UHGV virus genome: UHGV-0115695
Source of the DNA: a virus
DNA length: 42,066 nucleotides
Direction: 5' to 3' (one strand)
Positions 2,591-42,066 of the stretch are shown here, one piece after another. The notes beneath the pieces are model-generated. The model did not search any database. It worked only from the letters and a program-made list of their open reading frames with translations, and was not told the origin of the DNA. Position 1 is the first letter of the stretch; the number at the start of each line of letters is the position of its first letter. Position numbers and translations under genes: made by a program.

Positions 2591-3438
2591 TACTGCTCCG
2601 CGATTATCTTGATGGTTGTGGCAGTAAACGCCGCACCATTTGACTGAATGGTTAACGTACTGCCATTTGTGGCAAGAAAGCCGTCTTTATCCACGCTGAA
2701 GAACGTAGCTAACAGGATGTTATCGGTTGTTGTCGCCGCATTACGACTGCTGACCAGTGTGTCAGGAACAGAGCCGGAAAAGGTTAGCTGCATTGACCTG
2801 TTTGCGGTTCCGCTGGGCCACGTCCCGACAATCGACAGCTTGAAGAACAGGGTTTTGTTCTCGTTGAACACAACCATCTTGTTGTTAACGGTGTCGAAGA
2901 ATGGTGCCAACGAGCCGGATGACGGCGTGAGCGTTTTCAGCAGGCTAACAAGGTTGGTCGGCGCTGTCGGGATGGTTACAGATACGCCAGAGTAAACAAC
3001 CTCTGACTTCTTGCGTGTGGTTGCATACTCCAGAGCATCAATGCGCGATTCATGGTCTGAAACCTGCGATTCCAGCGACTGAACTCTGGTATCAAGCGAC
3101 GCAATATCGCTTTCATTCTGAGCGATTCGCGTTTCATGTTCCTGAAGAGTTGATTCTGCCTGGCTGATTCGCTCCTCATGATTAACAAGTGTTGCTTCCG
3201 CAGCAGAAATTCGCTGCTCATGGTCAGCGAGAATCACATCCTGCTCATCGTTCCTGACCTGTGCATCATAAGCGCCCTGTCCTGCCTCGTTGGCCTTGTT
3301 AGCCACGTTACCAACATCAGTGCCCTGTGCGATAACGTAAAGCAGATACGACTGCGAGAAGATATTGCGTGGAAGGACTGATGTGTCGAGTCGTGTAGCC
3401 TGAATGATTACCGGCTCATTGAGATTCGAATCAGCCAT
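2590..3438 (-). CDS. 26: Tail needle protein (P22 gp26 family) with a different, longer C-terminal domain
   Basis: N-terminal ~60 aa ([43 protein letters not shown]...) closely matches recalled P22 gp26 N-terminus, followed by heptad coiled coil; C-terminal ~130 aa unrelated to P22; 282 aa versus 233 aa in P22. Confidence 0.85.
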
Positions 3439-4856
3439 TACTCAATCCTTATCTGGCAGCCTGAGAGAGTGACAGGTGACTTAGTGATAACGCGCAATTT
3501 GAAGCCGACATTTTTCCTGATGCGCCCGACTCGCTTCCACAAAACGCGTTTGTCGTAAACGAACGGTTCATTCTGCTCAATCATCTGCTCACGACCGTAA
3601 TTTATGCCGTCAGTGGTTGCAGAGAGGAACAGGCGGTCAGCGTACTGCGCAACGCCAGTTGAAGATTCAACCTCAAGGTCGAACACTCTTGCGTTATCCG
3701 CTTTGAACAACGGAGTAAACAACAGGTGTTCCTGTTGCTTGTCGTACTGGCTGCTGATATCGAACTGCAATTTGCCGATAACCGATTCCAGCTTATCGCC
3801 GCACGTTATCTGATTGCCTTCGTAAATGAAGTCGATAGCGCGGTACACATCGTCATACAGGCCTGTTTTCAACACACACCATTGCGGACCATTGGCGCTT
3901 GAAGATGCGTCGTATACGAGGACGTGGCGCGGAAGATGGATAATCAGCAACTCATGCGCATCAAACCGCAACGATTCCATCACGCCATCAGCCAGTTCAT
4001 CAGCAGTGTAGGAGCGGAGGATTTTCTCAATGCTCGCGCTGGCGATTGGTGATACCTGACCGGAGCCGATGATGTACACAGACGGCGCACCTGTTGCCGG
4101 ATTGCTGATGAACGCATACGAATCAGCAAACGGCGTTTTGCAGTAGGTTCCGGCAATCCCTTTCTGCACCATCAGTGATGGCTGTGCGACATACAAAGCG
4201 GCACCAACAGTGGTTGCACCAGTCAGGGAGAAATATTCAATCGTCGATGAACCAAAACAGACGATGAAATCTCGCCATGTTCCGATGCCGATGATGCCGT
4301 CAGGCTGAGACTCGGCACGATATTGTGCGCTGTAACGGTCAGGATGCGATTCGTCTTCAGGGTCAGTGATAAACCATGAATCAGTGCCGTCTTTTGACCA
4401 CGCATAACGCCCACGTAAACGCGTAATGTCGCGAACCGAACCTAACTCATACTGAGTGAATCCGCTGTCTGTAGGCCAGTTTGAGACGGTTTTAACCGTG
4501 CCATCATAGCGATACTCGACCAGTTGACCATTAACGCCTACCGCCTGTGATGTTCGACCATGCGCCATTGATACGCGACCACTTCCGGCAACATCACCAA
4601 CCTCGCTTTCGCCCTTATACAGCTTGCCACCACACACGCGATAAACAGCATTCTGCGCCATGTTGTACTCGACGCCTCGCGATACGCCGTTCACATCAGA
4701 ACGTTTGGCAATGCCCGGGAATGAGCGAAGATATCCGCTGCTGTTGAGGATTTCTTTGGGTGTAGCCAACATATTCACTGGTAGATAGTCGATATAGTCA
4801 GCGTTTCTAAAGTCTTTGCCGACACCTTTCATAAGCGGAAGTTGCTGAATCGGCAT
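3438..4856 (-). CDS. 10: Head completion / tail-hub protein, P22 gp10 homologue
   Basis: 472 aa, the same length as P22 gp10 as I recall it; position between gp4 and the needle gene. Confidence 0.85.
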
Positions 4857-5334
4857 TTATTCGCTCCCGTTATCGCAAGGTTCCTTCCGGTGGAAGTAAT
4901 TCCAACCGTTCCACTTCGCCAACTGGTTACCACTACCAACAGGCATACGGTTTGGATAACCGGACTTACATTTAGCGGCTTTTGCTCTGTCCATTGCAGA
5001 CAGTTTGACGAGTCGCTCTTTCCCGTATCTGGCAGTGGTTATAAGTTTTGCAGAGGCTTCCAGCGCATAATCCGGAGCAATTCGGCAGGCAAGGTTGAAA
5101 ATGACAGAATTGATAGCGTTATTTGATAAACCGTGCTCATCGCCCGGATCCGGAGCGACATCTGCATCAGCAAAAATGTAGCCAACGTTGATGCCAGGTG
5201 ACACATCACCGCCAAGCCATTCAGCCATCATCATTTCAAGGTCATTGACGCCGTCTTCCATGGACTGCGGTTCGACATCGGTTAACGTGGCATTTGATGC
5301 CACACCGAGCTTACGTAATGCCGCAAGGACTAAA

Positions 5335-5357
<23 letters not shown>
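4857..5357 (-). CDS. 4: Head completion protein, P22 gp4 homologue (start at internal Met of the 203-aa track ORF)
   Basis: From [33 protein letters not shown]... the protein matches recalled P22 gp4 and gives 166 aa; the N-terminal (SQ)n extension in the track comes from reading the hexanucleotide repeat and is rejected. Confidence 0.85.
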
Positions 5358-5607
<250 letters not shown>

Positions 5608-5620
5608 GCTTGTCTCCAGA

Positions 5621-5648
5621 TAAAAAAGGGAGCCGAAGCTCCCTTTGG
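5621..5648 (-). terminator. Rho-independent terminator downstream of coat gene
   Basis: Minus strand reads GGGAGC-TTCG-GCTCCC followed by TTTTTT, immediately after the coat stop codon. Confidence 0.8.
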
Positions 5649-5651
5649 TTA

Positions 5652-6947
5652 TCACGCGGTCTGGTTAGGCAGACCAACACCAATTGCCTCTGGTCGTACA
5701 GCACATGCTGAATACCACACAGCAATACGGCACTTACCAGACAGAGTGTTGATATCACCCTGCGTTGCGAAGATGCCGTTAACACCAATACCAGGAATGC
5801 TGAAGGAAGACGTTTTCATGCCAGCAAACAGTTCATGGGTTACCGGGATCGGCTGAGACAGTAGACGGATTGAGTCATCAGCCCAGAACACGTTAGCGGT
5901 GGTTGTTGCCACGTTCAGAACGTTTACCGGAGTGGTATCAGCAAGAGAGGTGTTTACATTCGCGTAAGCCTTCTCTTCTTTTGTCAGTGACGCGTCATCA
6001 AGTGCAATCGGCTTCGGCGTGATTTCGATGTGAGTACTATCGATCACACGGGTGATTGAGAAAGTTGCATCATCAGTCAGCACGTTCTTCGCCATCTGAG
6101 ACAGGAATTTCACACCAGTGAAGCTTATTTTGTCGCCGCGCTTAAATCCGGTGGTGGAGGATACGGTCACCGTTGCAACACGGTTGTCGACGTTCTCTTT
6201 GTTACCATCGGTATCAAGGGTGTATGCCTGCGGCTTAAACTTCTGCGCACCAGAAACAGTTACACCAGTAGCGGTTGACTTGGTAACTGCCGGAAGTTTC
6301 GGTGAGCGAAGAATTTCATCAAAGCCAGCAATCTGACGCTGAATAGTACCGTTGCGATACGCTTCTTCAGGAACGCGCCCGAAGATGTCACCATCTACCA
6401 GGTTGCGGCCTGCTTTGCGGTAATCGTCGGGGTTCAGGAAGTAACTGATGCCCATATCGCGGTTTAGCTCACGGGAGAACATCAGGCGCTCTGCATCAGA
6501 CACAAAATCCCAGCCAGACAGGCCAGTAGATGGACCAATTGCGCGGGTATCGTGAACAACAAGCGAGCCCATTTCAGTTGCCTGTTTGGCAATCGCTGAC
6601 TCAATGTTATTCGCCAGTTTTTTGGCGGATGCCTGGATGCGGCGACGGTAAGAACGCTCATCACGCAGGTCATCTGCACGAAGCTCGAAGAAATCGTTAT
6701 CCGGATCGCCCATGTTGCATTTCACGGAGAGTTCCAGAATCCCGGTTGCGTTGCCAGTTAAATCCCAGCCAGTCTGGGTTGGCGCTTCCTGCTCAACAGG
6801 CATCCACACGGTGTTGCTTGAACGCTGCATGGATTGTGCCGGAGGGGTGTATTTTGTCACTTTGGACGCCATTGGCGTCAGATTCTGGACGGTTTCGATG
6901 ATTTCATCGATAGCGTAAGTAACTAACTGCCCTTCTTTGAGAGTCAT
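5652..6947 (-). CDS. 5: Major capsid (coat) protein, P22 gp5 homologue
   Basis: 431 aa; strong similarity along the whole length to recalled P22 coat protein (e.g. ...[15 protein letters not shown]-terminus). Confidence 0.95.
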
Positions 6948-7014
6948 ATATTGAATACCTTACTTTCTTTATGTGCTATACTATTGTTATATCAACATAT
7001 AGCGCATTAGGGTT

Positions 7015-7536
7015 ATGAGCATGGAACTGAATGAATACTTCGAATACCGCGATGGTTTTTTGGTTTGGAAAGCCAGAAGCTCTGAATTTTTCAACAACAA
7101 AAAGAATCGCAACTATCACAACGTTTGGAATGCAAAACACGCTGGGAAAGTTGCTGGTCTTTTAGAAAGCAATGGATATATCCGCATAAGAATTAACGGC
7201 ATTAAGTGGCTAGCACACCGAATCGTATGGGTGATGTTTAACGGAGATATTCCAGAAGGCATGGAAATTGACCATATAAATGGGATTCGCCACGACAACA
7301 GAATTGAAAATCTTCGTCTTGTGAAAAAATCAGCAAACCAAAGGAATAGAATCAAACTATCTAAAAATAACTCCAGCGGAATATCTGGAGTTTACTTTTG
7401 CAACACGCGGAAAAGATGGATCGCTCATAAGCGACTGCTTAATGCAAGAGTGCAAAAAGTATGTTCTTCATTCGAAGAGGCGAAAGAAGTAATCAGAAAG
7501 TTTGACGAGGAAAACAACATCACGATATCGAAATAA
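7015..7536 (+). CDS. Freestanding HNH homing endonuclease (HNH_3 motif plus AP2-like DNA-binding region)
   Basis: IDHINGIRHDNRIENLRLVKKSANQRN HNH motif; ISGVYFCNTRKRWIAHKR AP2-like segment; AT-rich gene, opposite strand to and wedged between scaffold and coat genes; own TATACT-like -10 upstream. Confidence 0.85.
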   Translation: MSMELNEYFEYRDGFLVWKARSSEFFNNKKNRNYHNVWNAKHAGKVAGLLESNGYIRIRINGIKWLAHRIVWVMFNGDIPEGMEIDHINGIRHDNRIENLRLVKKSANQRNRIKLSKNNSSGISGVYFCNTRKRWIAHKRLLNARVQKVCSSFEEAKEVIRKFDEENNITISK

Positions 7537-8448
7537 TTATCGAATTCCTTTATTCAGTTGCGCCTTGAGCTTGCGGTATGTCTCTACATCCCCTTTGTTT
7601 GCTGCCGCTTCCATCTGTTTTTCAATCGCAGAGATATTTGCAGCAACAGCGTGTCCCTGAATGGGTTCATCAGGTAACGGGGCTTCTGAAACAGGCTTTG
7701 CTCGAGGCTTGAGAGTTAAACGTTCTGACAGTCGAGTGAGTTCAATCAGTGCGGATTGCCCGTCCATCGCCAGCAACTGGCGTGTTTTCTCAGGATTAGC
7801 ACCAAGGTGATACATGAGAGCGGCGGATTTCTCCGGGAAGAGGCGCATGATGTCGGCACCGACTGCTGGCGGCACCAGTTGCATGAATGCATCCTCTTTC
7901 TCCTGATAGTCAGGGATATTGAGCTTTTCCGCTGCGTCGTAGTGCTTACGGGCTGCCTCGACGTATTGCGCTGATTGCTGGGTGAACTCCTGAGTTTTGC
8001 GACCCTGCTCGGCGACAGCCTGGCTTCGTGCGTCCATAGCCTTGATCTGCCATTCACTGTTTGCCTGCTGGAAGGCCGCCAGTGCGCGGCTCTGGTCATA
8101 GTCGTACTTAGCCAGTGCGTCTTCGGAAAGATAATCGTTAGGGTCTGGTTGTTTTGGTAACTCAGGGTTCACCCGCAGGTGCTCCGGCAACTCTCCACGC
8201 TTAACCGCTTCCATCTGCTGCTCAAGCTCACGCTGGCGTTTGCGTTCGATGCGGCGACGAGCAAATTCAGCATTAGTTGCCGGGTCTTGTTTTGGTTTCT
8301 CATCGTCTTTCAGGACAATCTCGAAGCCTTCTTCCTGACCTGCGTTGTCGTTGGCATTATCGACAACTAAGCCATCAGCAGATGCCGCTGCATGATTGCC
8401 GGGCAGGGTTAATTCTTCAGAAGCCTGAATGTCGGTGGTTTGGTCCAT
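7537..8448 (-). CDS. 8: Scaffolding protein, P22 gp8 homologue
   Basis: 303 aa, the same length as P22 gp8 as I recall it, with similarity to it throughout. Confidence 0.95.
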
Positions 8449-8461: not shown

Positions 8462-10627
8462 TTATTGAGGTGTCTCGGCTACTCCGCCGGAGGGGATTTG
8501 AACTTGACGCATAAGATTCGCGAAATCCATGCGTTGTGAATGAGTCTGGTCTGCATCTTTAAGAAGCAGCTCAGCGTTAGCGCGAGCGTCTTTGCTGCGC
8601 TGTTGCTGGAATTGACCTACGAGCTTGAGGTACTCACGCAGTTCTGCCTGCTTGTCGAGGTCCATATTGTTGAAGATTTCTGCAATCTTCGCGGCGTTGA
8701 GTTGGTTTTGGGCTTCAACCTTGGCAGCTTCAACCTGAATCTGCGCCTGTTGGTTCTCTGCCTTGAGCAATTCAGCCTGACCTTGCAGAAGGATACCCTG
8801 CGCCTGAATTTGCTCTGCTGATGGCTGCTGCGTCTGTTGTTGTGCCTGCTGCACCATCTCCATCTCTTCAGGTGTTTCTGGTTTCTTCAGCCCCATCATC
8901 ACCAGTTGCTTGTTCGCGTACTCTCGCATCATCTCGACGCCTTTACCGTCAAGCAGCGTGAAGTATTGCAGCATCAGCATCTGGAACTCTGGAGTACCTT
9001 GCGGAACCTTGGTAAGTAACTCCTGAATCTCTGCGCGGTTCTGTTCCTTCATACTCTGGAAGGATGGTCCAACGTCTGTATAGCACTCATAGCGACCGCG
9101 AATGTCGTTGAGTGTGACCACATTGCCGGACTGGTAATCTACAACTTGCGCGTAGAGTTGAACGTCTTTCTCGCTTCCGTCTTCAAGAGTCAGCGTTACA
9201 TGGCGAGGAACGTCATAAATATCGTTGACCATTGAGGCATAAATCTCGCCATCACGTCGCATTGCGGTAGCCAGGTTATCCTGAAACACGTATGTCTCAA
9301 GGTCTGCCCGCATGTTCAGTTGATTGACGGTATCGAAAGCGACCTGACCATTTGCCGCCTTCGCATCCACGCCAAGACTAGCCACCTCTTTCACTGCGTT
9401 GGTGGCAGCCTCAAGCATGTAAGCGTTGGCTTGCGGCACTTCAGGGTTTTCCATGTAGGAGATTGGACCAATCGGCAGGTCGTTGCCGTTTTCATCGGTC
9501 TTGTTCTGCAAATAGTACGGATAGTCATCATTTCCACCGTACATGTATTCGTAGCCTTCGATTTGCTCAGGGAAGAAGGTCGGTTTCTTCTTCGGTGAAC
9601 GAGCAACAATATCGGCGTTGAACGACATGATCATGTTACGAAGGCGTTGACCGTCTTTCGTCAGCCTTACCACTCCTTCGTAGCACTCCTTGTCACCAGC
9701 GAATGACCATTCGCCATACACTGGAACGATTGGAATATGCTCTCCGGCTATCTTCTCGCGGTCTTTCAGTATCTGCGTGCAGGTGATGATCGACTTATAC
9801 ACGCGCCGACGCTTCACCTTGCGCTCTGCTACCTTAATGAATCCACGATTAGCCAGGTCGTCGATGACGTCTTTGATATCCTGCTGGTAATAGCTGACCG
9901 GCTCACCTGTCAGCGGGTCGCGGTAGATGAAGACTTTCTCCTTCTTCTCTTCTACCTCGTAATACTCAGCGACGTAGACGACATCATTCGATACCCACGG
10001 AAACAGCCATGTATCGTTCGGATTCTGGAAAGATGGCAAGGTGTCCGGATCAATACCGTAATCCTCTGCGAACTCTTTCCAGCCATTGCGCGACAAGGCG
10101 TTAATCACCGTGCAGTGCTTAGCGTCGCTCTTATCCATCTGCTTGCTGTTGGCGTCCCATATGACGTGTGAGCAGGCTTCATGGATTGGCAGGCGTCGGA
10201 TTACCTGATTGTTGCTTGTTGGGTCGTTGTCTTCGTACTGGGTGACCAGACGCCATGCACCAACGCCGGACTCTATCTGCTCACGAACGCCAACGTTAAC
10301 GGCAATTTTTGCCGTGTTATGGCGCATATCAGTACGATACATTCCCATCAACACATCGGCAGCATCAGGATTAGCGCCGTCTTTGGGTCTGAATAGAACG
10401 TCGATAGGGTTCCGACGCATCTCTGCGACCAGTTTCCTGACCACCGGGCGAACAACATCGAATTGTCCGCGATATTGCAGGGTGGTGTAGTTTGATAGCC
10501 AGTCATCCCATTGCGACACTCGGCTAAAATACAGGTCATTTGTCGCCTCGGTTCTGGCTTCATCGCTCGCCATCCAGTCTGCGTCAAACTTACACAGAAT
10601 GGAATTGAGTCTGTTTTCGTCGGCCAT
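8462..10627 (-). CDS. 1: Portal protein, P22 gp1 homologue
   Basis: 721 aa; P22 portal-like sequence with long C-terminal Gln/Ala-rich coiled-coil barrel region. Confidence 0.95.
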
Positions 10628-12127
10628 TTAAGTTCTCCGTGCGATGGGCCTGATTGGGGCTGGTATCTTTTTCTCTTTTGGTTTTTTGATGTCGCGCATC
10701 ATTTTGGCGAAGCGGCGCATCATGTATGCATAGCGAACGGCTGAGAGAACGTCGTCGTTAAGCTTGACGATTTTCCCGTTTTCATCACGGTGATAGAGGC
10801 GGAACTCCTCAAAGAATGGCTCACAGTTGTTGAATACTTTGAAGCGACCATCGAGCATCATGTCGCGCAATTCAGTGATGCCAGGCTCCACAGCGTTACC
10901 GCCATCAGGCCATGTCGCATGCTCCTGCAACATCATAAAACCAGCGTCGGCATACTGCCCTTTGAGCTGCTCACCGCCGCCCTTCTCATGCTGGTTTCCG
11001 TCATGAGGCCATGCGGTTGGCACTTTATGCGCCCATGATTTAACGGCTCCCCATGCCTGAACAGCTGTTTTTTCTTTCGCCTTCCACACGCGTGAAACGT
11101 AGATTGTGTCTGCGTCCTTATCCCACCAAAGCTGAACCTGCGCCTGTGGGTGATCCCATCCGAAATCCATCCCGCCAATTACGTAGAAGTGATCAGGACA
11201 CTCGAACGGCTGACACTTAATTGTCTCTTCCGGTATCTGGAAGATTCGACCACTACCCATCGTAGGAATACCGCGAGCACGCGCCTCTCTCTCATGCTCA
11301 GGATAGGATGCGATGATTTGCTCTTTCTGCTCGTCGGTGTAGTGCTCAGCGTCATAGATGGTCATGTTGACCACTTTCTGCGACTTGCTGGGATTCTTCA
11401 GGAACTTGGTAACAACGTCAGACATCCCCATCAGCGGGGTAAACGTCAGAATTGAGAATTGCCCGTATTTGTTGGTACGGGTAAGGCCTTCGCCATAAAT
11501 GCTGTATGGTGGCTCTTCGTCAAACCACACGCCGTGGATTGTGTCACCCTGCCAGCGAGCGCGACCTTGCGAGTATGGTTTGAAGTAGCAGATTGAAATG
11601 CCATCTTCAACGCCATCAGCCGTGTGATGCTTAACCAGAAGATGATCAACAAGGTTCGGAAAGAAAGGAGACTTCTTCCAGCTAATGATGTCTTCTTTAG
11701 GTATGGAACCGTAGCCTGGCTCATCATTCTCTTCGATACGACCACACAGGATGCGTTGAGTCGTTTTGGTTACAGTCTCGTTTGTCTCGCCGCCAATCCA
11801 GAAGACAACAGGCTCATAGAAACGCTTACCTTTCCACTCCCCACCATATTTACCATCAGCCGGATAGCCTTTTGTTCCCGGATAACGCCCGGTAAGGTGA
11901 AACGCGACTTCAGCAGCCCCAGTAAATGACTTACCAAGCTGGTTACCAGCCATAAAACAGCGCTCTGGATAGTCATGCCCGGCATCGATGAACTCACGCT
12001 GTTTGCTGTATGGCGTAAATTCATATAGCAGGTGTGTGTTCCGGTAGTTCTCTTCTTCTTCGAGTAGCTCGAGCAACTCGATTTGCTCTTCGTCGCTCAG
12101 GTTATCAAGAATCGCGTCCAGTTCCAC
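10628..12127 (-). CDS. 2: Terminase large subunit, P22 gp2 homologue
   Basis: 499 aa, the same length as P22 gp2 as I recall it; Walker A-like GNQLGKS; overlaps small subunit gene by 23 nt as in P22. Confidence 0.95.
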
Positions 12128-12599
12128 GGTTGAATAGCTCCTTGATACGAGAGCGCCGCTTATCGCGATCTCCCTTATCAGGTGTCACGTCTTCAACTTG
12201 CGACTGCTCTTTGAGGCCCAAATCACGGGCGATGATGTTAGCGTTGAGAAGGTCAGCGGCTGCGCCAGAGAATTTCTGGTCGTAGATGATGTCTTCCGCT
12301 CGTGATGTGACGTCAGAAAAACCTTCCATTGACCGGAAGGTTCCCCATGTTTGCCTGGTGATATCAAGGAAGGTACACAATCCTGAAATAGTCATGGCTC
12401 GCATCTTAGGGACATTAGCCTTAATTATTTCTCCCTGATATGAAAATACCTTACCCTCCCATAGCGGGTTATCATCAGCCCACTCGAAGTATTCACAACA
12501 AGCAGCCCACAGCGCCTCAGGCGATTCGAATTTAGGGTTTCGCCCATGACTACTGCGGGCCTCCCAGAATCGGTTGCCCTTTGGTGCTGCCATATTCAT
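12105..12599 (-). CDS. 3: Terminase small subunit, P22 gp3 homologue (true start may be the Met two codons in)
   Basis: [38 protein letters not shown] matches recalled P22 gp3. Confidence 0.9.
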
Positions 12600-16265: not shown

Positions 16266-16889
16266 CTAACGTGTGACCGCATTCAAGATATTGTCTGCGA
16301 TTGACTCTTCCTTGTGGCATTGCACCACCAGAGCGTCATACAGCGGCTTAACAGTGCGTGACCAGGTGGGTTGAGTAAGGTTTGGGATTAGCATCGTTAC
16401 AGCGCGATATGCGGCGCTTGCTGGCATTCTTGAATAGCCGACACCTTTGCATCTTCCGCACTCTTTCTCAACAACTCTCCCCCACTGCTCCGTTTTTGCT
16501 ATATCAACCGCACGGCCTGTACCGTGGCAATCTCTGCATCTTGCGCCCGGCGTAGCGGCACTACGGCAATAATCCGCATAAGCGAATGTTGCGAGCACTT
16601 GCAGTACCTTTGCCTTAGTATTTCCTTCAAGCTTTGCCACGCCACGGTATTTCCCCGATACCTTGTGTGCAAATTGCATCAGATAGTTGATAGCCTTTTG
16701 TTTGTCGTTCTGGCTGAGTTCGTGCTTACCACAGAATGCAGCCATTCCGAATCCGGCTTGTGATTGCGCCATCCCCATAGCAGCCATCACATCAGTACCG
16801 GAAAGAGAGTCAGAAGCCGTAGCCCGTGGTGAGTCGCTCATCATCGGGCTTTTTGGCGAGTGAAATTTAGCTACGCTTTCGAGTCTCAT
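16266..16889 (-). CDS. Q: Late-gene antiterminator Q (lambda type)
   Basis: 207 aa, the same length as lambda Q as I recall it, with matching sequence; Cys-rich zinc-binding region CRDCHGTGR...CGRCKGVG. Confidence 0.95.
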   Translation of the reverse strand: MRLESVAKFHSPKSPMMSDSPRATASDSLSGTDVMAAMGMAQSQAGFGMAAFCGKHELSQNDKQKAINYLMQFAHKVSGKYRGVAKLEGNTKAKVLQVLATFAYADYCRSAATPGARCRDCHGTGRAVDIAKTEQWGRVVEKECGRCKGVGYSRMPASAAYRAVTMLIPNLTQPTWSRTVKPLYDALVVQCHKEESIADNILNAVTR

Positions 16890-31117: not shown

Positions 31118-31365
31118 AATAGCGGGTAAAATATTTTTCACATCTAAAAAATACCATTCCAATCAATCCCCTGCTGCCTCAAGTAGATGTCTGCAGGGGA
31201 CACCATGAACACTTCTCACTAAGTCCAATTAATTCCATAACTCACTGTTTTAACTGATATCATCTCCTTATACTCGTCCAGCAAAGTACCATTATTTCTA
31301 ATGGAATCTATACATCTTTGCGTATAACATTGTGTATAACTGAGTTCGATCTTTTTTCTATACAC

Positions 31366-32541
31366 ATGCTGCTATCTGACATCCAAATAAAAAGAGCAAA
31401 ACCGAAGGACAAACCCTATACGCTTAACGATGGTATGGGGCTATCACTCCTGATCGACACAGCGGGCAGTAAAGGCTGGCGTTTTCGCTATCGCTTTGCA
31501 GGTAAGCCTAAGATGATTTCCTTTGGCGTATATGGCGATGTGTCGTTGGCACAGGCACGTACCAAACGTGATGAAGCGCGTTCGATGTTAGCCAAAGGGA
31601 TAAACCCAAGTGAAGCCAGAAAAGCAGATAAGATTGCTTTGCAGTTCGCGCATGAGAACAGCTTTGAGTCTGTGGCCAGAGAATGGCACTCATCGAAAAA
31701 AGCCACCTGGTCAGAGGGTTATGCAAAAGAGGTTCTCAATTGTATGGAAAAGGATATTTTTCCTTTTATCGGCCAGCGCCCAATTGAGCAGATTGAACCA
31801 TTAGAACTGCTAACCGTCCTGCAAAAAATAGAGAAAAGAGGTGCGCTAGAGCAAACCAGTAAGATCCGCCGCCGCTGTGGTGAAGTGCTTCGTTATGCTG
31901 TTGCCACTGGTAGAGCAAAGTATAATTTTGCACCCGATTTAGCTATCGCACTCAACAAACCTAAAACCCAACACTTCCCGTTCCTGACTGAAAGCGAGTT
32001 GCCCGAGTTCGTTAATGCTCTGGATAACTATCAGGGCAGTTTAGTTACCAAATACGCCACGCAGCTGTTGATGCTAACAGGCGTGCGAACAATTGAACTA
32101 CGTGCAGCGGAATGGGCTGAGTTTGATTTAGATAATGCCTTATGGGAGATCCCCAAAGAACGGATGAAGAAACGCCGCCCCCATCTGGTTCCGTTATCAA
32201 CTCAGGCGATCAATATCCTGAAAAAGCTGCAAGAAATAACAGGGAATTACAGCCTCGTTTTCCCTGGCCGAAATGACGTCAGGAAACCAATGAGCGAAGC
32301 CAGCATCAACAAAGTGATAAAACTACTGGGTTATCACGGTCGGTTAACGGGTCACGGTTTCAGGCATACCATGAGCACCATCTTGCATGAGCATGGGTTT
32401 GAAAGTGCCTGGATTGAAATGCAGCTTGCGCATGTTGATAAGAACTCTATTCGAGGTACTTACAATCATGCGCAATATATTAAAGATCGACAAGTAATGA
32501 TGGAATGGTACGCTAGCTTATTAAATACGACCTGCTATTAA
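31366..32541 (+). CDS. int: Tyrosine integrase, P4-family (arm-type N-terminal DNA-binding domain)
   Basis: N-terminus IKRAKPKDKPYTLNDGMGLSLLIDTAGSKGWRFRYRFAGKPK typical of P4/CP4-57-type integrases; C-terminal catalytic region with R...HGFRHT...Y; ATG at 31366 preferred over the upstream TTG. Confidence 0.9.
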   Translation: MLLSDIQIKRAKPKDKPYTLNDGMGLSLLIDTAGSKGWRFRYRFAGKPKMISFGVYGDVSLAQARTKRDEARSMLAKGINPSEARKADKIALQFAHENSFESVAREWHSSKKATWSEGYAKEVLNCMEKDIFPFIGQRPIEQIEPLELLTVLQKIEKRGALEQTSKIRRRCGEVLRYAVATGRAKYNFAPDLAIALNKPKTQHFPFLTESELPEFVNALDNYQGSLVTKYATQLLMLTGVRTIELRAAEWAEFDLDNALWEIPKERMKKRRPHLVPLSTQAINILKKLQEITGNYSLVFPGRNDVRKPMSEASINKVIKLLGYHGRLTGHGFRHTMSTILHEHGFESAWIEMQLAHVDKNSIRGTYNHAQYIKDRQVMMEWYASLLNTTCY

Positions 32542-33471
32542 ATCCAGCATGAAACAAATATGGTGAGTAATTTGATACTGTTTGTTTTTTGGCAACCCAG
32601 GGAAATGCCTTACAGTTGGTTGACTATTGTAATAATAATAGTTAAGACCAATGTTGCTGCCAAACTGGGTTGGATGTTGGGGAACAAGATTTGTAATTTG
32701 ATCTGAAACATCTAAAAATTTTGCAGTAACATTTGAACTTCCTCGTTGCGTGTTGCTTGATACAAAATGACGAATCCAAACTGTATTCGCTTGTAAATTC
32801 TTGAACACCAAATGTGCGGCAACAGCAGAAGGTTGACCACCTCCAAGATCTAGTACCTGGCCAGTAATTGTATAATCGCCAAATCCTAAGTAATTTTGTC
32901 CCACGAATTGATGTGCGTGCGTGAAAAGTTCCGGCCCATTATAATCAGCATTTTTTGCTAACTTTCTAAAGTTATCGCTAATAATAATTAACTTCGACAA
33001 AGGAAGAAGAGCGCACTGATTAGGAAGCATTTTATTATTTAAAACAACATGATAACTAATCAATTGATTTGTCGCCAACAACTGAATATCAGAGTTGGAT
33101 AATGATGGATTATCATATAGAAGTGCAACTCGTCTATTTAAGTTAGCATTCAACCAATTATTAATATCATTAATCGTTGTATTGGGCTGAATAAGATATC
33201 CAGAGATGATATTGTTTTTATTTGTTAATACACTTGATAAATTTTGATTTAAAGTTAAGACGTTATTGTGTGAAGAAAAATCTTCCTGATAAGGATTAAG
33301 GATAACAATTATGTCAGAATTCCAAACATTTAAACATGTTAATAAATTTCTCGTATTGACGTTAATTGGTTCTAAAATTGGTAGCAGACCATTTAGGCTA
33401 ACTCCCTTCGCAACGAGGTCCCTAAGGCATAATAACTCTGTACTTCTCGCATACAAATATGGGCTATACAT
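32521..33471 (-). CDS. Unknown protein B of low-GC two-gene cassette (316 aa)
   Basis: Long uninterrupted ORF, AT-rich codon usage distinct from flanks, 22 nt downstream of protein A; only weak motif VLDLGGGQ; no family recognised. Confidence 0.75.
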   Translation of the reverse strand: MYSPYLYARSTELLCLRDLVAKGVSLNGLLPILEPINVNTRNLLTCLNVWNSDIIVILNPYQEDFSSHNNVLTLNQNLSSVLTNKNNIISGYLIQPNTTINDINNWLNANLNRRVALLYDNPSLSNSDIQLLATNQLISYHVVLNNKMLPNQCALLPLSKLIIISDNFRKLAKNADYNGPELFTHAHQFVGQNYLGFGDYTITGQVLDLGGGQPSAVAAHLVFKNLQANTVWIRHFVSSNTQRGSSNVTAKFLDVSDQITNLVPQHPTQFGSNIGLNYYYYNSQPTVRHFPGLPKNKQYQITHHICFMLDLIAGRI

Positions 33472-33492
33472 AACTTACAACTCCTGAGGATA

Positions 33493-34374
33493 TCAACAAA
33501 TTTTAATTTTTACATCCATCAAATTCATGATGAATTCTTTTTGCTTTCTTGATAATGGTGTTGCATAACCTAAAACACGTAAACATGCTGGAAGAGAATA
33601 AATATAATCCAAAAAAACTTTGTCGTTACATCTTTTTTTCATAGCAGAGATAAAGTATTTATTTGCTATGTTTAATGGCATCTGCATGAATATCTCTTTA
33701 CAATATTCATAAACCAATCCATTAGGCATATTTATTTTAGTTGAAGTGTAATCTTCTATTATAGCTAAGAACTCTTCCTTTCTAAGAACTGAAAACAAGC
33801 TGTCACTTTTAATATAATCAATATTTGAATCTGCCTCCTTAATGACACTCAATTGATCTTTTTTATTCAAAACCATAACTCCCACTCTGGGGAGATTTAA
33901 AGCACAATATTTACTTGCATACTCTGGATGTGTAACTATATACACTTTATCAAAAACATCCAAATAATCAGGGGCTTGAGTAATCAACCTTTTTGGTGAA
34001 TCATACTCTGTCTTAATCTCGTAAGCTGTAGACGTACCATTAAACACCGCAACATCCACTATAGAGTTTTTAATTGGTAACTCTATGGACGACGAACTTG
34101 TTTTTGGGCTGTGCTTACCGAATATTATTTTATTGACAAGTGCTGTCTTATAAACATATTCATTTCTATAATTCAGACGCAAAAAATCATATAATGATGT
34201 AAATAAATCCCTTAGTGAAATCTCATGTTCATTATTATCATTGTTTGAAAACAGTGTTTCATAGCAGTAAGAATCAAAACTCCCAAATAAATCCGAAATA
34301 TCCTTACCTTTTGCTAAGGATGAAAAAATGGGGCGACGGAAAAATTTAGCATATTCCTTTTTATTATGACTCAT
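33493..34374 (-). CDS. Unknown protein A of low-GC two-gene cassette (293 aa), possible PD-(D/E)xK-like nuclease
   Basis: Long ORF, AT-rich; segment SIVDVAVFNGTSTAYEIKTE has the D...ExK spacing of restriction-endonuclease-fold catalytic cores (inference only). Confidence 0.75.
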   Translation of the reverse strand: MSHNKKEYAKFFRRPIFSSLAKGKDISDLFGSFDSYCYETLFSNNDNNEHEISLRDLFTSLYDFLRLNYRNEYVYKTALVNKIIFGKHSPKTSSSSIELPIKNSIVDVAVFNGTSTAYEIKTEYDSPKRLITQAPDYLDVFDKVYIVTHPEYASKYCALNLPRVGVMVLNKKDQLSVIKEADSNIDYIKSDSLFSVLRKEEFLAIIEDYTSTKINMPNGLVYEYCKEIFMQMPLNIANKYFISAMKKRCNDKVFLDYIYSLPACLRVLGYATPLSRKQKEFIMNLMDVKIKIC

Positions 34375-35054
34375 TACTCATACTCTATAAACATCATGCA
34401 ATTTGATAAGTTATGACGAATTCTCACCATCCAGTTACTACCTGTACATACTAATCAAAAAAAACGAGTACGCAAGATACGAAAGTACTTTTCTTGTTCA
34501 CCAGTTAGCTTACCTTGATCCTCACCAGCGACTGGAAGATAGGTAGCAGTATATGTGGAAACCTTCCCCTAGCTAGGTCTACAAACGTAGTTTGGGCATT
34601 TAGGCTCCACGATTCACGGTTTGACACGGCCTGATATCTGCACATTCGTTTTGATATGCAGCAATCGTGAAAAAGGGAAAATATACGCTCGACAGACCAA
34701 AACGGCACTACACCGCACCCGCCTGCGGTTTTCATATCACTAAAAATTTTCAGCCTGGATTTTTTACAAACGATACCGCCAGTCCGTGCCAGTCCTCGAG
34801 ATGTACTGCGATACAGGAACTGAAAAGAATGAAAAGAAATTCATTTTTTTTCAGTTTTACTGTCCGTCGAATCTATGGCCTGAATACGCAACTCTATGAT
34901 ATTAAATGGATAATTAATTTTAGGTGTGTGATTTTATGAAGGTTTGTGAAACATGAAGAAGATAACCAGTTGAAAAATAATAATTTTATGACCGTATAAA
35001 CTGAAATCCTGTGTTCAGGTTCCGGGAACAGATCGGCCATTCCCGACGCATACT

Positions 35055-35327
35055 TTACCCATTCTTTTGCGCAGCCAGCAGCAACTTTAAAGCCTTTTCC
35101 CGTTCCTCGGGTGGAATTGCATCAATCAGCTCTTTAACCCTTCCCTGCCCGTTCAGCGCGCTTGGACTAACGGAATGGGAGAAAGCAACATTCATCACAA
35201 ACGAGTGACCGCACTCCACATTAGAGCAATAGCAGTACACATCGTACAGTTGTGGGTGTTTCCTGTTTGTTTTACCTATCCGTGCTACTGCCTGACATGT
35301 GGGGCAGTACATTCTCATCATCTTCAT
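35055..35327 (-). CDS. ogr: Ogr/Delta-family zinc-finger late transcription activator
   Basis: 90 aa; CPTCQ...CYCSNVECGHSF zinc-finger arrangement typical of P2 Ogr / P4 Delta. Confidence 0.8.
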   Translation of the reverse strand: MKMMRMYCPTCQAVARIGKTNRKHPQLYDVYCYCSNVECGHSFVMNVAFSHSVSPSALNGQGRVKELIDAIPPEEREKALKLLLAAQKNG

Positions 35328-35392
35328 CGTTCTGTGCCCTATACTGTTGCCCGCCAGAAGAAGGGATTTGGATCCCTACCTCTTGTTCTGAA

Positions 35393-35585
35393 CGTGTAAC
35401 ACTGGTAACACGTGTAACGCTATTGATTTAAAAGGATTTAATCTGTTACCAGTTAGCAAAATCAAGAGGTAACGCGTGGTAACACACCATTTTTTGTTAC
35501 CTCTGTTACCAGTCAGTATTTTTGACTGGTAACACTGAAGAACCGCATCAGTAACGGGTGTTACCTCTGTTACCAGTGTTACCTC
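35393..35585. repeat. Iteron array (about 12 GTTACC/GGTAAC cores in both orientations), putative satellite replication origin
   Basis: Repeated TGTTACC and its complement read directly in the sequence, immediately 3' of the primase gene; resembles P4 TGTTCACC iterons bound by alpha. Confidence 0.7.
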
Positions 35586-35609
35586 ATAAAAATAAGACTC
35601 ACGCGATAA

Positions 35610-38297
35610 TCACTCAGGTTCAGCGCTTCCCAGTACCTGTGTATTGAACTGGTACACACGTTTAAGCCCTATTTCTGGCAGGCGAATGCTGTTTTGCGTC
35701 CGGCCATCTTCACCGGGTTTCAGCCAGCCCGCGTCCACACACAACCTGGCCACCTTACGCGAGTCAAATCCCTTACAGATCTCCTTCCAGCCTGACGGGA
35801 GAACGTAGAACGTCACAACCGGCTCTGTCACGTTGTCTCCTTTATCGACTTTTCTGAATCCCATCATTGAAACAGGCCGGTTCCTGTCGTCATTCCAGTC
35901 AGCAAACCGACTGAACTGATTACGCGTCATGAAGTCCCGAACCTGTTCAAGTGCCGCTTTATCTTCCTGATTAGCTGTATGGCCCCGGTCAGCCATCCAT
36001 GCAGCCAGACAGCTTTGAGCGGCACGAAAGGCCTCTCCCTCCGGCCATCCTGTGATGCCCGCTTTTGTGGCCAGCTCCCCGGCCATCGCAACCAGAGCAA
36101 AACGGGTAACAGCCCGGCCAACCTGATTCCCGGCATTTTCCGGCGTCAGCCTTCGGGTATACTCTTTCAATAAGGCTTTCGCCTGACTGGTCAGTTCCGG
36201 CAGATCAGCGGTCAGGCAATACAGCCAGTCGCGGAATGGTGCACCATGATAATGCGCTACGTGCTGCTCAAGATGCTCAGCCAGGGTTTTCCCGCTACTG
36301 AAGCCATGAAGTTCTTCAAACACGCCATACTTGCCCGAATCGCTTGGGATCTGGATCATTCTGACCTCAACCCCGGCATACGTACGTTCCCCGGCGCTTG
36401 CCGCATGCTCTACCAGTGACAGTTCCCCGGTAGACAGAAACAACAGATTCCAGCGGTTGGTTTCCCTTACCGAACCATCTGTTCTGGCTCTGGCTTTGCC
36501 CTGCCCGTTAGCCAGCATATAAGCGATATTCCCCGCCTCCCTGCCGTCAACCTCCCGGATTTCATCCAGCATCAGCGTGGCATCATTGCGGCGGCTCGCC
36601 GTTCCTTCTAAGGCATTCCCCGTCGCCCGCCACGTATGCCAGAAATCTGTTCCACCACATACTGATGCAGCCACTTTCATCGTCGTGGTTTTACCGTCTG
36701 TGGATTCCCCTTTGAGGTGATAACCTCCACCGCCGATACCAACCAGTTTCAGAAGGGGGGCAGCAAATGCCAGACTCACCGCAAAGGCAAGACGGGCATT
36801 CTTTATGCAATAACGGCCTATATTTTCACGCCAGCCCTCTGATGTGCCGCTGACACGAAAATCACGCCCCTGCACACTCGATGTTTGTAAGATGACTGAC
36901 TGGGCTTCGCGCCCTATCACTTCATCCTGGAGAACGTAAACCCCGCCGTGCCAGCCAGTTTTATTCACACAGGTTACTTTTCTGTCCGGTTTACACAGCG
37001 AGATATATTCCATCAGGAATGCTCTGGCCATGCCATTAATGTTGATGTAAGAAAGCCCGTTAACCAGCAGAACGCGGCGCAGTTCTTCCCCGCTACCGCC
37101 CAGCATCTCCATCGGCATTGCCCATTTACGGCTGTTTCCGTTGGTATCTTCCCATTCCAGCAAACGCCCGTAATTACTTCCATCAGCATCACTGGTGATT
37201 GCCGTCACCCGCAACGGACTGCAAATTTTGATATTACGTATCTCTGTATCACCATCAGACTTATTAACCAGCTTGTCGTACCACAAATATTCTTTTGTCA
37301 GCCGGAACCCTTCTGGTAAACGGGTCTGCCCTTTGCCATGCAGCGTCATTTCTTCACGAAAGGCATCTCTCGCCCGTTCTTTCCCCACTTCCTGCCGATA
37401 ATCATCCCAGTCAGCCTTATGGCGTACCGGAGGGAGCGTTACCCAGCCATCCACCGCTTTGGCGGCTTTCTCTGCCTGAATACGCCCGGTGTTTTCTTTG
37501 CCGTCAGCCAGATCATTATCTCCGGCCAGAATGATCCGAGTTTCCGGCCAGCGTTTTCGGATCTGCTCCGTCACCTTCAGTAAATTGGTGGCAGCGACAG
37601 CCGCCACGATCCATCCTTCAGTCAGCAGACTGACGGTAAGCGCCGTGGCAAAACCCTCAGTGATAATCACCTGTTCAGGTGTTTCAGCGGGTATATCGGT
37701 CAGGGCAATGAATGCGCCAGACAGCTGGCTACCGGGCAGCAGACTTTTATCCCCGTCAGGATTGATAAGCTGGCCACCAGTAATATTCCCGGAAATATCC
37801 GTCAAAGGCAGCAGTAATGAACCGGTGGAAAATGTTATTCCGGCCAGATTCAAAGGCTGTGACAGCAAGGGAAGTGAATACCCGTGTAAGCCCTTATTTG
37901 TCAGATAGACCGGCTCACCATTGCAGGACTGCTGTCTGAGTCTGGTATATCGCTCCGCGCCCGCTTCTTTTCCTGCGGCCTTTTTCCTGGCTGGCAATGC
38001 GGGCTTCTCCTGTATTTCTGGTAATGCAAGCGCCTCAGATACCATCCCGGCGACTTCTTTTATCTTTCTTCCTGTCACCAGACGAACCAGATCAAGACCA
38101 TCGCCATGACCGCACTGATTACAAAACCACGTCCCTCGCCCCGCTTTATCGTCCAGTCGAAAACGATCTTTTCCACCACAGGCAGGGCAAGCCCCATGAT
38201 GTCCTGCGGACGGTACTTTAATACCTAATGCTGACAGGATATAAGGCCAGCGCCCAATTGCAGCTCCGGAAATCGTGGATACAGACGGTGTTTTCAC
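35610..38297 (-). CDS. Primase-helicase, P4 alpha family
   Basis: 895 aa; N-terminal zinc ribbon CPACGGKDRF...CNQCGHG, Toprim-like ITEGFATALTV, C-terminal helicase with Walker A GESTDGKTT. Confidence 0.9.
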   Translation of the reverse strand: MKTPSVSTISGAAIGRWPYILSALGIKVPSAGHHGACPACGGKDRFRLDDKAGRGTWFCNQCGHGDGLDLVRLVTGRKIKEVAGMVSEALALPEIQEKPALPARKKAAGKEAGAERYTRLRQQSCNGEPVYLTNKGLHGYSLPLLSQPLNLAGITFSTGSLLLPLTDISGNITGGQLINPDGDKSLLPGSQLSGAFIALTDIPAETPEQVIITEGFATALTVSLLTEGWIVAAVAATNLLKVTEQIRKRWPETRIILAGDNDLADGKENTGRIQAEKAAKAVDGWVTLPPVRHKADWDDYRQEVGKERARDAFREEMTLHGKGQTRLPEGFRLTKEYLWYDKLVNKSDGDTEIRNIKICSPLRVTAITSDADGSNYGRLLEWEDTNGNSRKWAMPMEMLGGSGEELRRVLLVNGLSYININGMARAFLMEYISLCKPDRKVTCVNKTGWHGGVYVLQDEVIGREAQSVILQTSSVQGRDFRVSGTSEGWRENIGRYCIKNARLAFAVSLAFAAPLLKLVGIGGGGYHLKGESTDGKTTTMKVAASVCGGTDFWHTWRATGNALEGTASRRNDATLMLDEIREVDGREAGNIAYMLANGQGKARARTDGSVRETNRWNLLFLSTGELSLVEHAASAGERTYAGVEVRMIQIPSDSGKYGVFEELHGFSSGKTLAEHLEQHVAHYHGAPFRDWLYCLTADLPELTSQAKALLKEYTRRLTPENAGNQVGRAVTRFALVAMAGELATKAGITGWPEGEAFRAAQSCLAAWMADRGHTANQEDKAALEQVRDFMTRNQFSRFADWNDDRNRPVSMMGFRKVDKGDNVTEPVVTFYVLPSGWKEICKGFDSRKVARLCVDAGWLKPGEDGRTQNSIRLPEIGLKRVYQFNTQVLGSAEPE

Positions 38298-38704
38298 AGC
38301 AGCACCTCCTGACCTTCCGGCTTCACAAATTCAAAACCTTCGGGTAGTTCGCCATCAGGTGCTCCGAAAATAATATCCCGGTAAACCTCACGCATCTCTG
38401 TGACACCAAAAACTGACAGGCGAATATTTTCTGACATAAAGCCTGGTTTAAGCATTTTTTCCAGTTTCTCTGCGGCCAGTATGCAACCAGCATCAGCCCC
38501 AAACTCATTCACCCACGGCATTTCAATATGGTAAATAATATTACTCACCACTTTTTCGTGGGAGAGTTCTATTCGTTCGCCATCTTCAATATAAACAGGT
38601 TCATTATGAACACGCACCATTAAGGAAATGAATGCATCAGCAATGTAGTAGCGTAAGACTGCTGTTCGTAAAGCATGCGCCTTTAAATTTTGATTATTAT
38701 TCAT
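38294..38704 (-). CDS. Hypothetical satellite protein
   Basis: 136 aa; stop overlaps primase start (ATGA); no family recognised. Confidence 0.5.
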   Translation of the reverse strand: MNNNQNLKAHALRTAVLRYYIADAFISLMVRVHNEPVYIEDGERIELSHEKVVSNIIYHIEMPWVNEFGADAGCILAAEKLEKMLKPGFMSENIRLSVFGVTEMREVYRDIIFGAPDGELPEGFEFVKPEGQEVLL

Positions 38705-38933
38705 CGCGCATCACTCCCTTAATTGTGCTGGTTTCCTTAACAACGCCATCCAGTTGTTCGGCAATACAGGCCACTAAAGCCGCAGCGCCTTCCGCTGAAA
38801 CAGTTCTCGCTCCATTCACTGTGGGCACGGACAAGACCTCTGCAAGAAACTCACTGGCCAGTGCCGCCCGTAACAGACGACTCTCCCCCTGTTCACTCAA
38901 TATGCAGCCTTGCTTAAAATTCATGGATTTCAT
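38697..38933 (-). CDS. Hypothetical satellite protein
   Basis: 78 aa; overlapping coupled ORF upstream of the 136-aa gene. Confidence 0.45.
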   Translation of the reverse strand: MKSMNFKQGCILSEQGESRLLRAALASEFLAEVLSVPTVNGARTVSAEGAAALVACIAEQLDGVVKETSTIKGVMRDE

Positions 38934-39133
38934 GCAACCACCTCCCCGGCTCTTTTCACAGGGATACGGGCAGCAAAGCTCAGGATAAATTCAGTGGCAA
39001 GTTTAAGGCGTGCAGCATGCTCGCATTCTGCGATTACACGCACAGGGCGTGGACGGGCATCACGGTCTGTACGGCGGACAGCCAGAAAGACAAAGGTAAA
39101 TTCAGGGTGAGATAAAGCAGGGACTGTAGCCAT
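38930..39133 (-). CDS. Hypothetical small basic protein (internal start of the 196-aa track ORF)
   Basis: 67 aa from MATVPALSHPEF...; GAAGGAGG RBS 8 nt upstream; the long N-terminal extension crosses an apparent promoter region and is rejected. Confidence 0.45.
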   Translation of the reverse strand: MATVPALSHPEFTFVFLAVRRTDRDARPRPVRVIAECEHAARLKLATEFILSFAARIPVKRAGEVVA

Positions 39134-39607
39134 AATGGCAACCTCCTTCAGATAGCGGGTAACGCTACCACCGGAGTTCCTACGCTCATGGGTGGTAGCC
39201 CAGACGGGGGTAGGAATACCGGCTCTGAAGGATACCGGCCAGCCCGAAAGCTGCCCCGCCTGGACTACCATAATTCTGATGATGTGGCGTAAAAAATAAA
39301 AAAATACAATCAGCCACCACACCATAAATTTTAGGTGAGTCAAAGCTGCGACACAAAAAAACACGCCTGGCGCGTGTAGTATCGCCTTCAGATAACACGG
39401 GTTCCTACGCCCGGCTGCCGATTTTGCGGCAACCTTTAAACTATATCCCGCGCATTCCTGGTGAGGCAAGAAATTTATAACCGAAAACTGATCATTGCCT
39501 GGATTAATTAACGCTGGCATGCTTAAGCCTCTGCTTAAAAATAGTTCTTCATTTTTCCTGATGCTGTAAACGAGACCCGCCTCTGAGCGGGTCTTTCTGT
39601 CGCTAAG

Positions 39608-40612: not shown

Positions 40613-40634
40613 AGTTTTTCACCTTTTTAAGTAT

Positions 40635-41495: not shown

Positions 41496-41512
41496 ATATT
41501 TGCCACCTCAAT

Positions 41513-42062: not shown

Positions 42063-42066
42063 AAGA

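Follow-up and report, generated by a model that had tools for sequence, protein, structure and literature searches.

Why does an endonuclease-like gene stand between the scaffolding and coat protein genes of a temperate phage, on the strand opposite to both, at a junction where most relatives have only an overlap of a stop and a start codon? The question is raised by the UHGV virus genome UHGV-0115695, whose whole stretch of 42,066 nucleotides is referred to here as the window. Positions 1 to ~12.6 kb of the window are taken up by the minus-strand late (virion) operon of a prophage related to P22 (Lederbergvirus), and an AT-rich insert separates two of its genes. The insert is probably a freestanding, site-specific homing endonuclease gene of the HNH_3 (I-HmuI-like, 'HNN') plus AP2 class that colonises the P22-like scaffold-coat junction. 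Such a gene is of a known phage type, whose class and mechanism are already established, and the member at this specific P22-like junction is new. No paper on this specific insertion in P22-like phages was found in the literature searched; Casjens & Thuman-Commike 2011 and Casjens & Grose 2016 may mention it.

A polymorphic insert at the scaffold-coat junction

The features on which the argument turns are the following.

6948..7536, no strand assigned: AT-rich insert of 589 bp, missing from most relatives, as seen in alignments with carriers and non-carriers and in its guanine-plus-cytosine (GC) content
7015..7536, plus strand: open reading frame (ORF) of a probable homing endonuclease, HNH_3 / AP2-like, 173 amino acids, with an alternative start at 7021
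7537..8448, minus strand: scaffolding protein gene, gp8 homologue (Pfam Phage-scaffold, 1.7e-179), stop-to-stop with the HNH gene
5652..6947, minus strand: coat protein gene, gp5 homologue (Pfam P22_CoatProtein, 5.1e-164), divergent from the HNH gene

The HNH ORF ends in a TAA (7534-7536) that adjoins the reverse-complemented scaffold TAA (7537-7539), and a divergent spacer of 67 nt separates its ATG from the coat ATG (coat start 6947, minus strand). A first-pass annotation, made from the letters of the window, had placed the ORF at 7015-7536 on the plus strand, stop-to-stop with the scaffold gene at 7536/7537 and diverging from the coat gene, and every one of these coordinates is right. The AT-rich insert that it put at ~590 bp measures 589 bp, with a GC content of 37.5% against ~50.5% in the flanks and 51-53% in the coat, scaffold and portal genes. 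The second ATG, at 7021, is the start chosen by the Prokaryotic Genome Annotation Pipeline (PGAP), and it has a better Shine-Dalgarno spacing than 7015, with a TAGGG Shine-Dalgarno sequence at 7008-7012, 8 nt upstream. The HNH gene may start there instead.

The limits of the insert were set by aligning phage Dewey and strain 19451123, which have it, with Bas106, IME10, APC_JM3.2, 98195, ECONIH6 and TO6, which lack it. Its edges lie directly after the coat ATG (in plus-strand reading) and directly before the scaffold stop. Relatives without the insert have the scaffold TAA overlapping the coat ATG as TAATG, and AAAGGAATYCGATAATG is almost universal at this junction in ~119 diverse P22-like loci, which bears out the earlier statement that the gp8 and gp5 homologues are normally adjacent. 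Up to its stop codon, the scaffold gene is identical in alleles with and without the insert. The HNH gene is the sole ORF of the insert, which encodes no transposase, and it stands between two complete genes, outside any intron or intein. Searches at 6948/7536 found neither terminal inverted repeats nor a target-site duplication, and the insert has no Rfam intron match. The gene is thus freestanding, as the first-pass annotation had described it.

Presence of the insert varies among close relatives. A scan of 5,426 complete Escherichia coli genomes found 218 with this scaffold-coat module, and 20 of these carry the insert. Phages Dewey and Louie have the same insert at 99.2-99.5% identity, and CurroJimenez/Bas106, IME10, APC_JM3.2 and HZ41 lack it while their flanks are 96-97% identical. 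Taken together, two of eight close phage records contain the insert, with the same insert boundaries and with flanks 96-100% identical across the relatives compared. It is also present in 10 of 78 IMG/VR loci, a sample made up of the 78 closest coat loci and hence biased towards the window's own allele. P22 does not have the HNH gene. Across related prophages the junction is therefore polymorphic, the insert being absent from ~90% of them, and the ORF is intact in all 18 carriers examined. Since ~90% of near-identical, demonstrably viable phages do without the gene, it is dispensable.

One copy departs from this pattern of intact ORFs. In the metagenome contig OHBN01012218.1, 20 bp corresponding to window 7263-7282 are deleted, with loss of the catalytic DH motif and a frameshift. 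Either the homing endonuclease gene is degenerating there or the short contig is misassembled; a degenerate copy, if real, fits what is predicted of a homing endonuclease life cycle. The window's own HNH gene has two private changes. One, at 7058, is a non-synonymous S15F (TCT to TTT) that has no counterpart in the 17 other carriers examined, and the other, at 7221, is synonymous.

The HNH protein and its orthologues

Two regions of the protein bear on its assignment.

7270..7338, plus strand: catalytic His-Me finger motif D86-H87...N99...N108, which aligns with the DH...N...N of I-HmuI
7375..7512, plus strand: probable AP2-like DNA-binding domain, residues ~121-166, three strands and a helix

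The gene is already annotated as 'HNH endonuclease' in GenBank and RefSeq. Residues 66-110 match Pfam HNH_3 (PF13392) with E=3.9e-22 and 78 bits, the cut-off being 24.8, and the protein matches PHROG 99 'HNH endonuclease' at 6.7e-51. NCBIfam gave no match to the HNH protein, and PADLOC returned generic 'HEase' models only. By sequence, the only significant solved relative is I-HmuI (PDB 1u3e; E 8e-4, ~22% identity). D86, H87, N99 and N108 are unchanged across an alignment of 46 homologues. In I-HmuI the residue numbers are reportedly D74, H75 and N96 (Shen et al. 2004). An AlphaFold (AF2) model made from the same 46-homologue alignment, with a predicted local distance difference test score (pLDDT) of 88, has the beta-beta-alpha metal finger in place (strands 83-87 and 100-104, helix 105-111). 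The top Foldseek match of the model is again I-HmuI 1u3e, with a probability of 0.99; a different arrangement of the domains keeps the global TM-score low (0.34).

The C-terminal part of the model consists of a low-confidence linker followed by strands 126-129, 134-140 and 145-150 and a helix at 153-166, with pLDDT 85-95; this order of elements is that of an AP2 fold. For the window protein the Pfam AP2 score is sub-threshold (15.3 bits against a cut-off of 33.3, E=0.026), and the scores of this protein and its orthologues run over 15-19 bits (cut-off 33); PF00847 is found in many homologues at greater distance. Foldseek matches to AP2 structures are weak (3igm, 6sy0 and Toxoplasma gondii AP2IX-6; E 0.04-2, probabilities 0.5-0.9). 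Profile, catalytic-residue and fold evidence establish the HNH_3 assignment, and the AP2-like DNA-binding domain is probable. The HNH half of the first-pass description 'HNH/AP2' therefore stands, with intact HNH_3, I-HmuI-like catalytic residues; its AP2 half is weak by sequence, and the predicted fold agrees with it. At window 7369-7392, within the ORF and at the linker before the AP2-like domain, there is a palindromic hairpin with an 8-bp stem. It is terminator-like on both strands, and ATTTTT follows it on the late-operon strand. Late transcription past this hairpin would need Q-type antitermination (a Q homologue lies at 16266-16889).

A search of a 5.8-billion-protein database returned closest homologues that are 99, 82, 74 and 59% identical by BLASTP, the last being 61% identical by local alignment. 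All contigs that encode these orthologues have the order coat (minus), HNH (plus) and scaffold (minus), in P22-like phages. Identities of the neighbouring proteins to those of the window are as follows.

82% orthologue: scaffold 75%, coat 88%
74% orthologue: scaffold 74%, coat 72%
61% orthologue: scaffold 51%, coat 68%

The ratio of non-synonymous to synonymous substitution rates (dN/dS) is 0.056 against the 82% orthologue, synonymous sites being saturated for the other orthologues, and the value indicates that the HNH gene is under strong purifying selection. The next relatives are ~40-60% identical and occur in unrelated siphophages of ~45-50 kb, the nearest non-orthologous ones in T1-like and related phages. 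A scan of GTDB genomes for further orthologous lineages gave just two distant relatives, in Pseudomonas and Roseateles. Scans of IMG/VR and metagenomes with a four-orthologue profile found no new lineage, only the 99% group and the known 74% lineage.

The P22-like prophage of E. coli 19451123 (NZ_CP191548.1) has two more HNH genes in its late operon, at 295-879 and 7182-7601. A split gp10 accompanies one of them; the other, on the opposite strand between portal and terminase, encodes an HNH_3/AP2 paralogue with 41% identity to the window protein. Hence, several late-operon junctions appear to be landing sites of homing endonucleases.

Known systems share individual traits with this gene. I-HmuI of Bacillus phage SPO1 (PDB 1U3E) resembles the window protein in the DH...N...N catalytic spacing and in being a modular, extended protein of ~170 amino acids. 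It differs in being encoded in a group I intron and in its C-terminal helix-turn-helix DNA-binding module. I-HmuI is a strand-specific nickase. The freestanding homing endonucleases of phage T4, such as SegG and MobE, are intergenic, have their target in or beside a conserved neighbour, and leave the carrier allele protected by polymorphism. In mixed infections they cause marker exclusion or co-conversion, with tracts that can reach hundreds of bp; the Seg enzymes are GIY-YIG nucleases. On these T4 enzymes, PMC10448857 cites Liu et al. 2003. The window gene has the same intergenic location, with a linked tract of <~40 bp.

A comparable architecture is that of the HNN-AP2 freestanding endonucleases described for Xanthomonas phages Xp10/OP1/Xop411, T1, Rtp and T5 (Magnani et al. 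2004), which join an N-terminal HNH_3/'HNN' domain to a C-terminal AP2 domain, as the window protein probably does. HNN/HNH_3-AP2 freestanding endonucleases are a recognised phage class with intergenic position and sporadic distribution (PMC2248197). The copies in Xanthomonas phages are dispersed, without conserved flanks, and their movement is thought to be sequence-independent (PMC2248197). The window lineage, in contrast, keeps to one junction in diverged hosts, and changes at the predicted target site are linked to it. The IPA-HNH homing endonuclease genes of ICP1 and other phages likewise combine HNH and AP2, are enriched beside essential genes (capsid, terminase) and mark boundaries of genetic exchange, and their atypical HNH domains go undetected by the Pfam HNH_3 model (Barth et al. 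2023, PMC10448857). Unlike these, the window protein is a canonical HNH_3 match and belongs to a temperate P22-like prophage instead of a lytic phage, and no 'HEG island' (HEG, homing endonuclease gene) or long exchanged segment is visible around its insert.

Linked changes in the coat gene and the flanks

If the gene homes to this junction, its footprint is to be sought next to the insertion point. Alleles there fall into three classes.

6909..6947, minus strand: coat nucleotides 1-39, cluster of insert-linked substitutions; predicted target and immunity region
Class A, HNH absent: coat start ATGGCATTAAATGAAGGTCAACTGGTCACG; the majority; junction ...CGATAATGGCATTAAATGAAGGTCAACTGGTC...
Class B, HNH absent: coat start ATGGCATTAAAAGAAGGGCAGTTAGTTACT; 8 E. 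coli genomes; junction ...ATGGCATTAAAAGAAGGGCAGTTAGTT...
Class C, HNH present: coat start ATGACTCTCAAAGAAGGGCAGTTAGTTACT; all carriers

Strict linkage to the insert holds for coat nucleotides 4, 6, 7 and 9 (window 6944, 6942, 6941 and 6939). In codons 2-3 these amount to A2T and a synonymous change of Leu3 from TTA to CTC. The 45-nt class C sequence was recovered from 19 E. coli carriers out of 20 (the 45-mer search did not return strain E62), from 10/10 IMG/VR carriers and from 5/5 metagenome carriers, and from none of the non-carriers examined.

A second group of changes recurs in diverged lineages. Coat nucleotides 13-21 read GAAGGGCAG in all four carrier lineages. Among 103 diverse non-carrier P22-like loci they read GAAGGTCAA in 99, GAAGGCCAA in three and GAAGGTCAG in one. 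G18 and G21 (window 6930 and 6927) are thus present in 4/4 HNH-bearing lineages, as against T18/A21 in 99/103 loci without the gene. Differences in the first 30 nt of the coat gene were also tested for enrichment against the nearest non-carrier relatives, with these results.

Window lineage: 11 differences observed, 0.34 expected, P 1.5e-13
74% orthologue: 9 observed, 3.3 expected, P 0.0075
82% orthologue: 13 observed, 5.8 expected, P 0.007

Beyond this patch the flanks are undifferentiated. In a comparison of 8 carriers with 9 to 11 non-carriers, differences between the two groups cluster only in the first 100 nt of the coat gene. Across the remainder of the coat gene (1.3 kb) and a further 2.9 kb of scaffold and portal, carriers resemble one another no more than they resemble non-carriers; mean pairwise differences in coat, scaffold and portal are equal in carrier-carrier, non-carrier-non-carrier and mixed pairs. 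Dewey, with the insert, and Bas106, without it, differ at 1 of 1975 portal positions. Nucleotide diversity in the same 18 carrier genomes is 0.43% in the insert, 1.98% in coat and 1.13% in scaffold, which puts the insert 2.6- to 4.6-fold below its flanks. Low insert diversity and undifferentiated flanks indicate that the insert is younger than the flanks and sits on many backgrounds. Youth and many backgrounds are what homing would predict, and recombination in a mosaic phage group could contribute.

These data also bear on the reach of any transfer. The first-pass annotation had suggested that homing at this site could promote allelic exchange of capsid genes, and the data show no sign of this. 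Hitchhiking of capsid alleles and long co-conversion tracts were looked for and are not supported, as sequence linked to the insert extends <~40 bp into the coat gene and 0 bp into the scaffold gene. Any co-conversion tracts are therefore very short.

Two elements near the coat-proximal end of the insert concern expression of the genes on either side.

6948..6964, minus strand: degenerate copy of the scaffold 3' end, which supplies a new Shine-Dalgarno sequence for coat
6974..6982, plus strand: candidate extended -10 promoter TGCTATACT for the HNH gene, read by eye

Before the coat ATG the insert reads AGTAAGGTATTCAATAT, and the junction without the HNH gene reads AAAGGAATTCGATA. The coat-proximal end of the insert copies the last 13-17 nt of the scaffold gene (AAGGTATTCAATAT-ATG versus AAGGAATTCGATA-ATG), and AAGG(T/A)AT..AATAT is kept in all four HNH-bearing lineages. 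The cassette carries its own copy of the Shine-Dalgarno sequence and so replaces the translational coupling that insertion destroys. As a side effect, an independent ribosome-binding site in place of TAATG coupling could alter the scaffold:coat stoichiometry.

The candidate promoter follows a TG(n)TATA(A/C)T pattern that is kept in three of the four orthologous lineages while the spacer around it diverges; the 61%-identical lineage has a shifted form, TGTATAAT, without the spacer base. A consensus promoter scan upstream of the HNH gene returned nothing, and missed this candidate because no -35 hexamer lies at 16-18 nt. The first plus-strand terminator-like hairpin downstream of the HNH stop is at window 7768-7782, ~230 nt inside the scaffold gene. 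Transcription of the HNH gene could thus continue into the scaffold gene, antisense to its 3' end.

Probable homing, its rivals and its significance

As a homing endonuclease gene, the insert would act through the following steps. The HNH protein would be made from its own promoter, on the strand opposite to the late operon. We infer that the target of the enzyme is the conserved junction of empty alleles together with the 5' end of their coat gene (...AAAGGAATTCGATAATGGCATTAAATGAAGGTCAA...), where it would bind. When carrier and non-carrier genomes share a cell, through co-infection or superinfection of a lysogen, it would nick or cut that junction. The broken allele would then be repaired by recombination with the carrier genome and so acquire the 589-bp cassette, the co-converted stretch beside it being very short. 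The carrier allele would be protected from the enzyme because the insertion splits the site and because coat codons 2-7 are substituted (ACT CTC ... GGG CAG). The cassette would bring its replacement Shine-Dalgarno sequence along, so that coat is still translated after the loss of TAATG coupling.

Several points weigh against this account. The view that the whole 39-nt coat patch is carrier-specific was considered and rejected, as the 45-mer search found 8 HNH-less genomes that share nucleotides 10-42; these are the class B E. coli genomes, and the shared stretch includes G18 and G21. Carriers thus share part of the patch with genomes that lack the gene, and that part may be an allele that existed beforehand; only nucleotides 4-9 are strictly linked. 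Class B may represent immune alleles that arose by conversion without gene transfer, or simply the allele that the element entered. G18 and G21 in the four HNH-bearing lineages may be shared by descent, in which case the lineages are not independent samples. Divergence of the HNH gene roughly tracks that of its neighbours, which fits long vertical residence as well as it fits repeated homing. In phages as highly mosaic as these, ordinary homologous recombination could be enough to move an old insertion from one background to another. The promoter candidate consists of a -10 element on its own, with a change of TG to CG in 2/18 carriers. To these is added the Pfam score of the probable AP2-like domain, which lies below threshold.

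The strongest competing explanation, which we consider unlikely though worth keeping in view, is that the gene is a prophage moron or weapon. Its nuclease, made from its own sigma-70 promoter in the lysogen, would mainly damage superinfecting HNH-less P22-like phages, and homing would be secondary. An AT-rich gene on the opposite strand with its own conserved -10 element is typical of morons, and strong long-term purifying selection is unusual for a purely selfish homing endonuclease gene. The predicted target is among the most conserved P22-like sequences, and PADLOC 'HEase' models match the protein. These matches, however, are to generic homing endonuclease models and name no defined defence system. 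Strict site-specificity and linked changes at the target site are predicted by homing and are not required of a defence gene. In its specific form, to which we give the same low credence, a nuclease expressed in the lysogen from the extended -10 promoter would cut the near-invariant junction of incoming HNH-less P22-like phages, and class B (GGGCAG...) would comprise escape or immune variants. The prophage would then gain a sequence-specific weapon against its closest competitors. The benefit to the carrier phage or host would lie in interference or marker exclusion, and in this respect the explanation overlaps with homing.

Less likely again is an old, now immobile insertion, inherited vertically and moved among backgrounds by ordinary homologous recombination alone, whose protein is kept for a phage function such as DNA-binding regulation of coat or scaffold expression. 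The parallel divergence of HNH, scaffold and coat across lineages would suit it, as would the high mosaicism of P22-like phages (PMC11990801). The insert uncouples scaffold and coat translation and adjoins the coat ribosome-binding site, and there are precedents, such as CapR, for the DNA-binding domain of a homing endonuclease being domesticated as a regulator of a capsid operon (PMC10448857). Against it, the catalytic residues are invariant, the gene is dispensable and a copy exists that may be degenerating. The reduced diversity of the insert relative to its flanks points to recent spread.

Two further explanations are highly improbable. One is a terminase-associated packaging factor of the HK97 gp74 type, needed for DNA packaging, which would suit a gene inside the head and packaging cluster. 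Such a factor would be encoded next to terminase or portal in a cos phage and kept in all relatives. The window gene instead stands on the opposite strand between scaffold and coat, away from terminase, in a P22-type headful phage whose small terminase is of the gp3 type, and P22, Bas106, IME10 and ~90% of related prophages lack it; position, phage type and dispensability rule this explanation out. HNH packaging factors are also of the classical PF01844 type, and the window protein is an HNH_3 member. The other is a mobile element of another kind, be it an insertion sequence, a transposon or one borne by an intron or intein. It would give a discrete AT-rich insert with sharp boundaries, but the repeat and Rfam searches described above, the lack of a transposase and the location between two complete genes rule it out.

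The remaining genes of the late operon in the window are these.

12105-12599, minus strand: small terminase, gp3-type
10628-12127, minus strand: large terminase
8462-10627, minus strand: portal, gp1 homologue (Pfam P22_portal, 4.5e-163)
~4857-5360, minus strand: gp4
3438-4856, minus strand: gp10

Between coat and gp4, window 5405-5462 consists of a hexanucleotide repeated perfectly, (TCTGGC)x9.7. A small ORF at 5335-5655 (PHROG 1175, function unknown) has this tract as (EP)n, and it gives (SQ)n when read in frame with a gp4 ORF extended at its N-terminus. In relatives, the length of the corresponding ORF varies between 138 and 612 nt, and the tract is therefore likely to be hypervariable. Beyond the P22-like prophage, on its downstream side (window 31318-42066), a tyrosine integrase at 31318-32541 is followed by a second element, with a P4-alpha-like primase (Zn-ribbon/Toprim/DUF927, 35610-38297) and a P2-family major capsid gene (39608-40612). 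For this second element, a satellite and a tandemly integrated second prophage are both possible. In E. coli OkiPb01684 (NZ_AP042519.1), insertions of IS3-family and IS100 elements have truncated the coat and portal genes of a P22-like prophage remnant, an instance of decay at this same locus.

The homing endonuclease interpretation places an otherwise ordinary mobile element in a favourable setting. Freestanding HNH-AP2 homing endonuclease genes are common in lytic phages and little studied in temperate P22-like ones. The conceptual advance would be small because the class and its mechanism are already established, and the main value of the system is its experimental tractability. A single orthologous lineage at a single junction, with ~10% carriage among near-identical E. 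coli prophages, constitutes a natural experiment. The predicted target of ~35 bp is conserved over the whole P22-like group, and candidate immune alleles without the gene exist. Cultured and almost isogenic phages that differ by the insert are at hand, with Dewey and Louie on one side and CurroJimenez/Bas106 on the other. If active, the enzyme may be a new site-specific nickase, and the junction would offer a tractable model for homing, marker exclusion and inter-phage competition in temperate phages.

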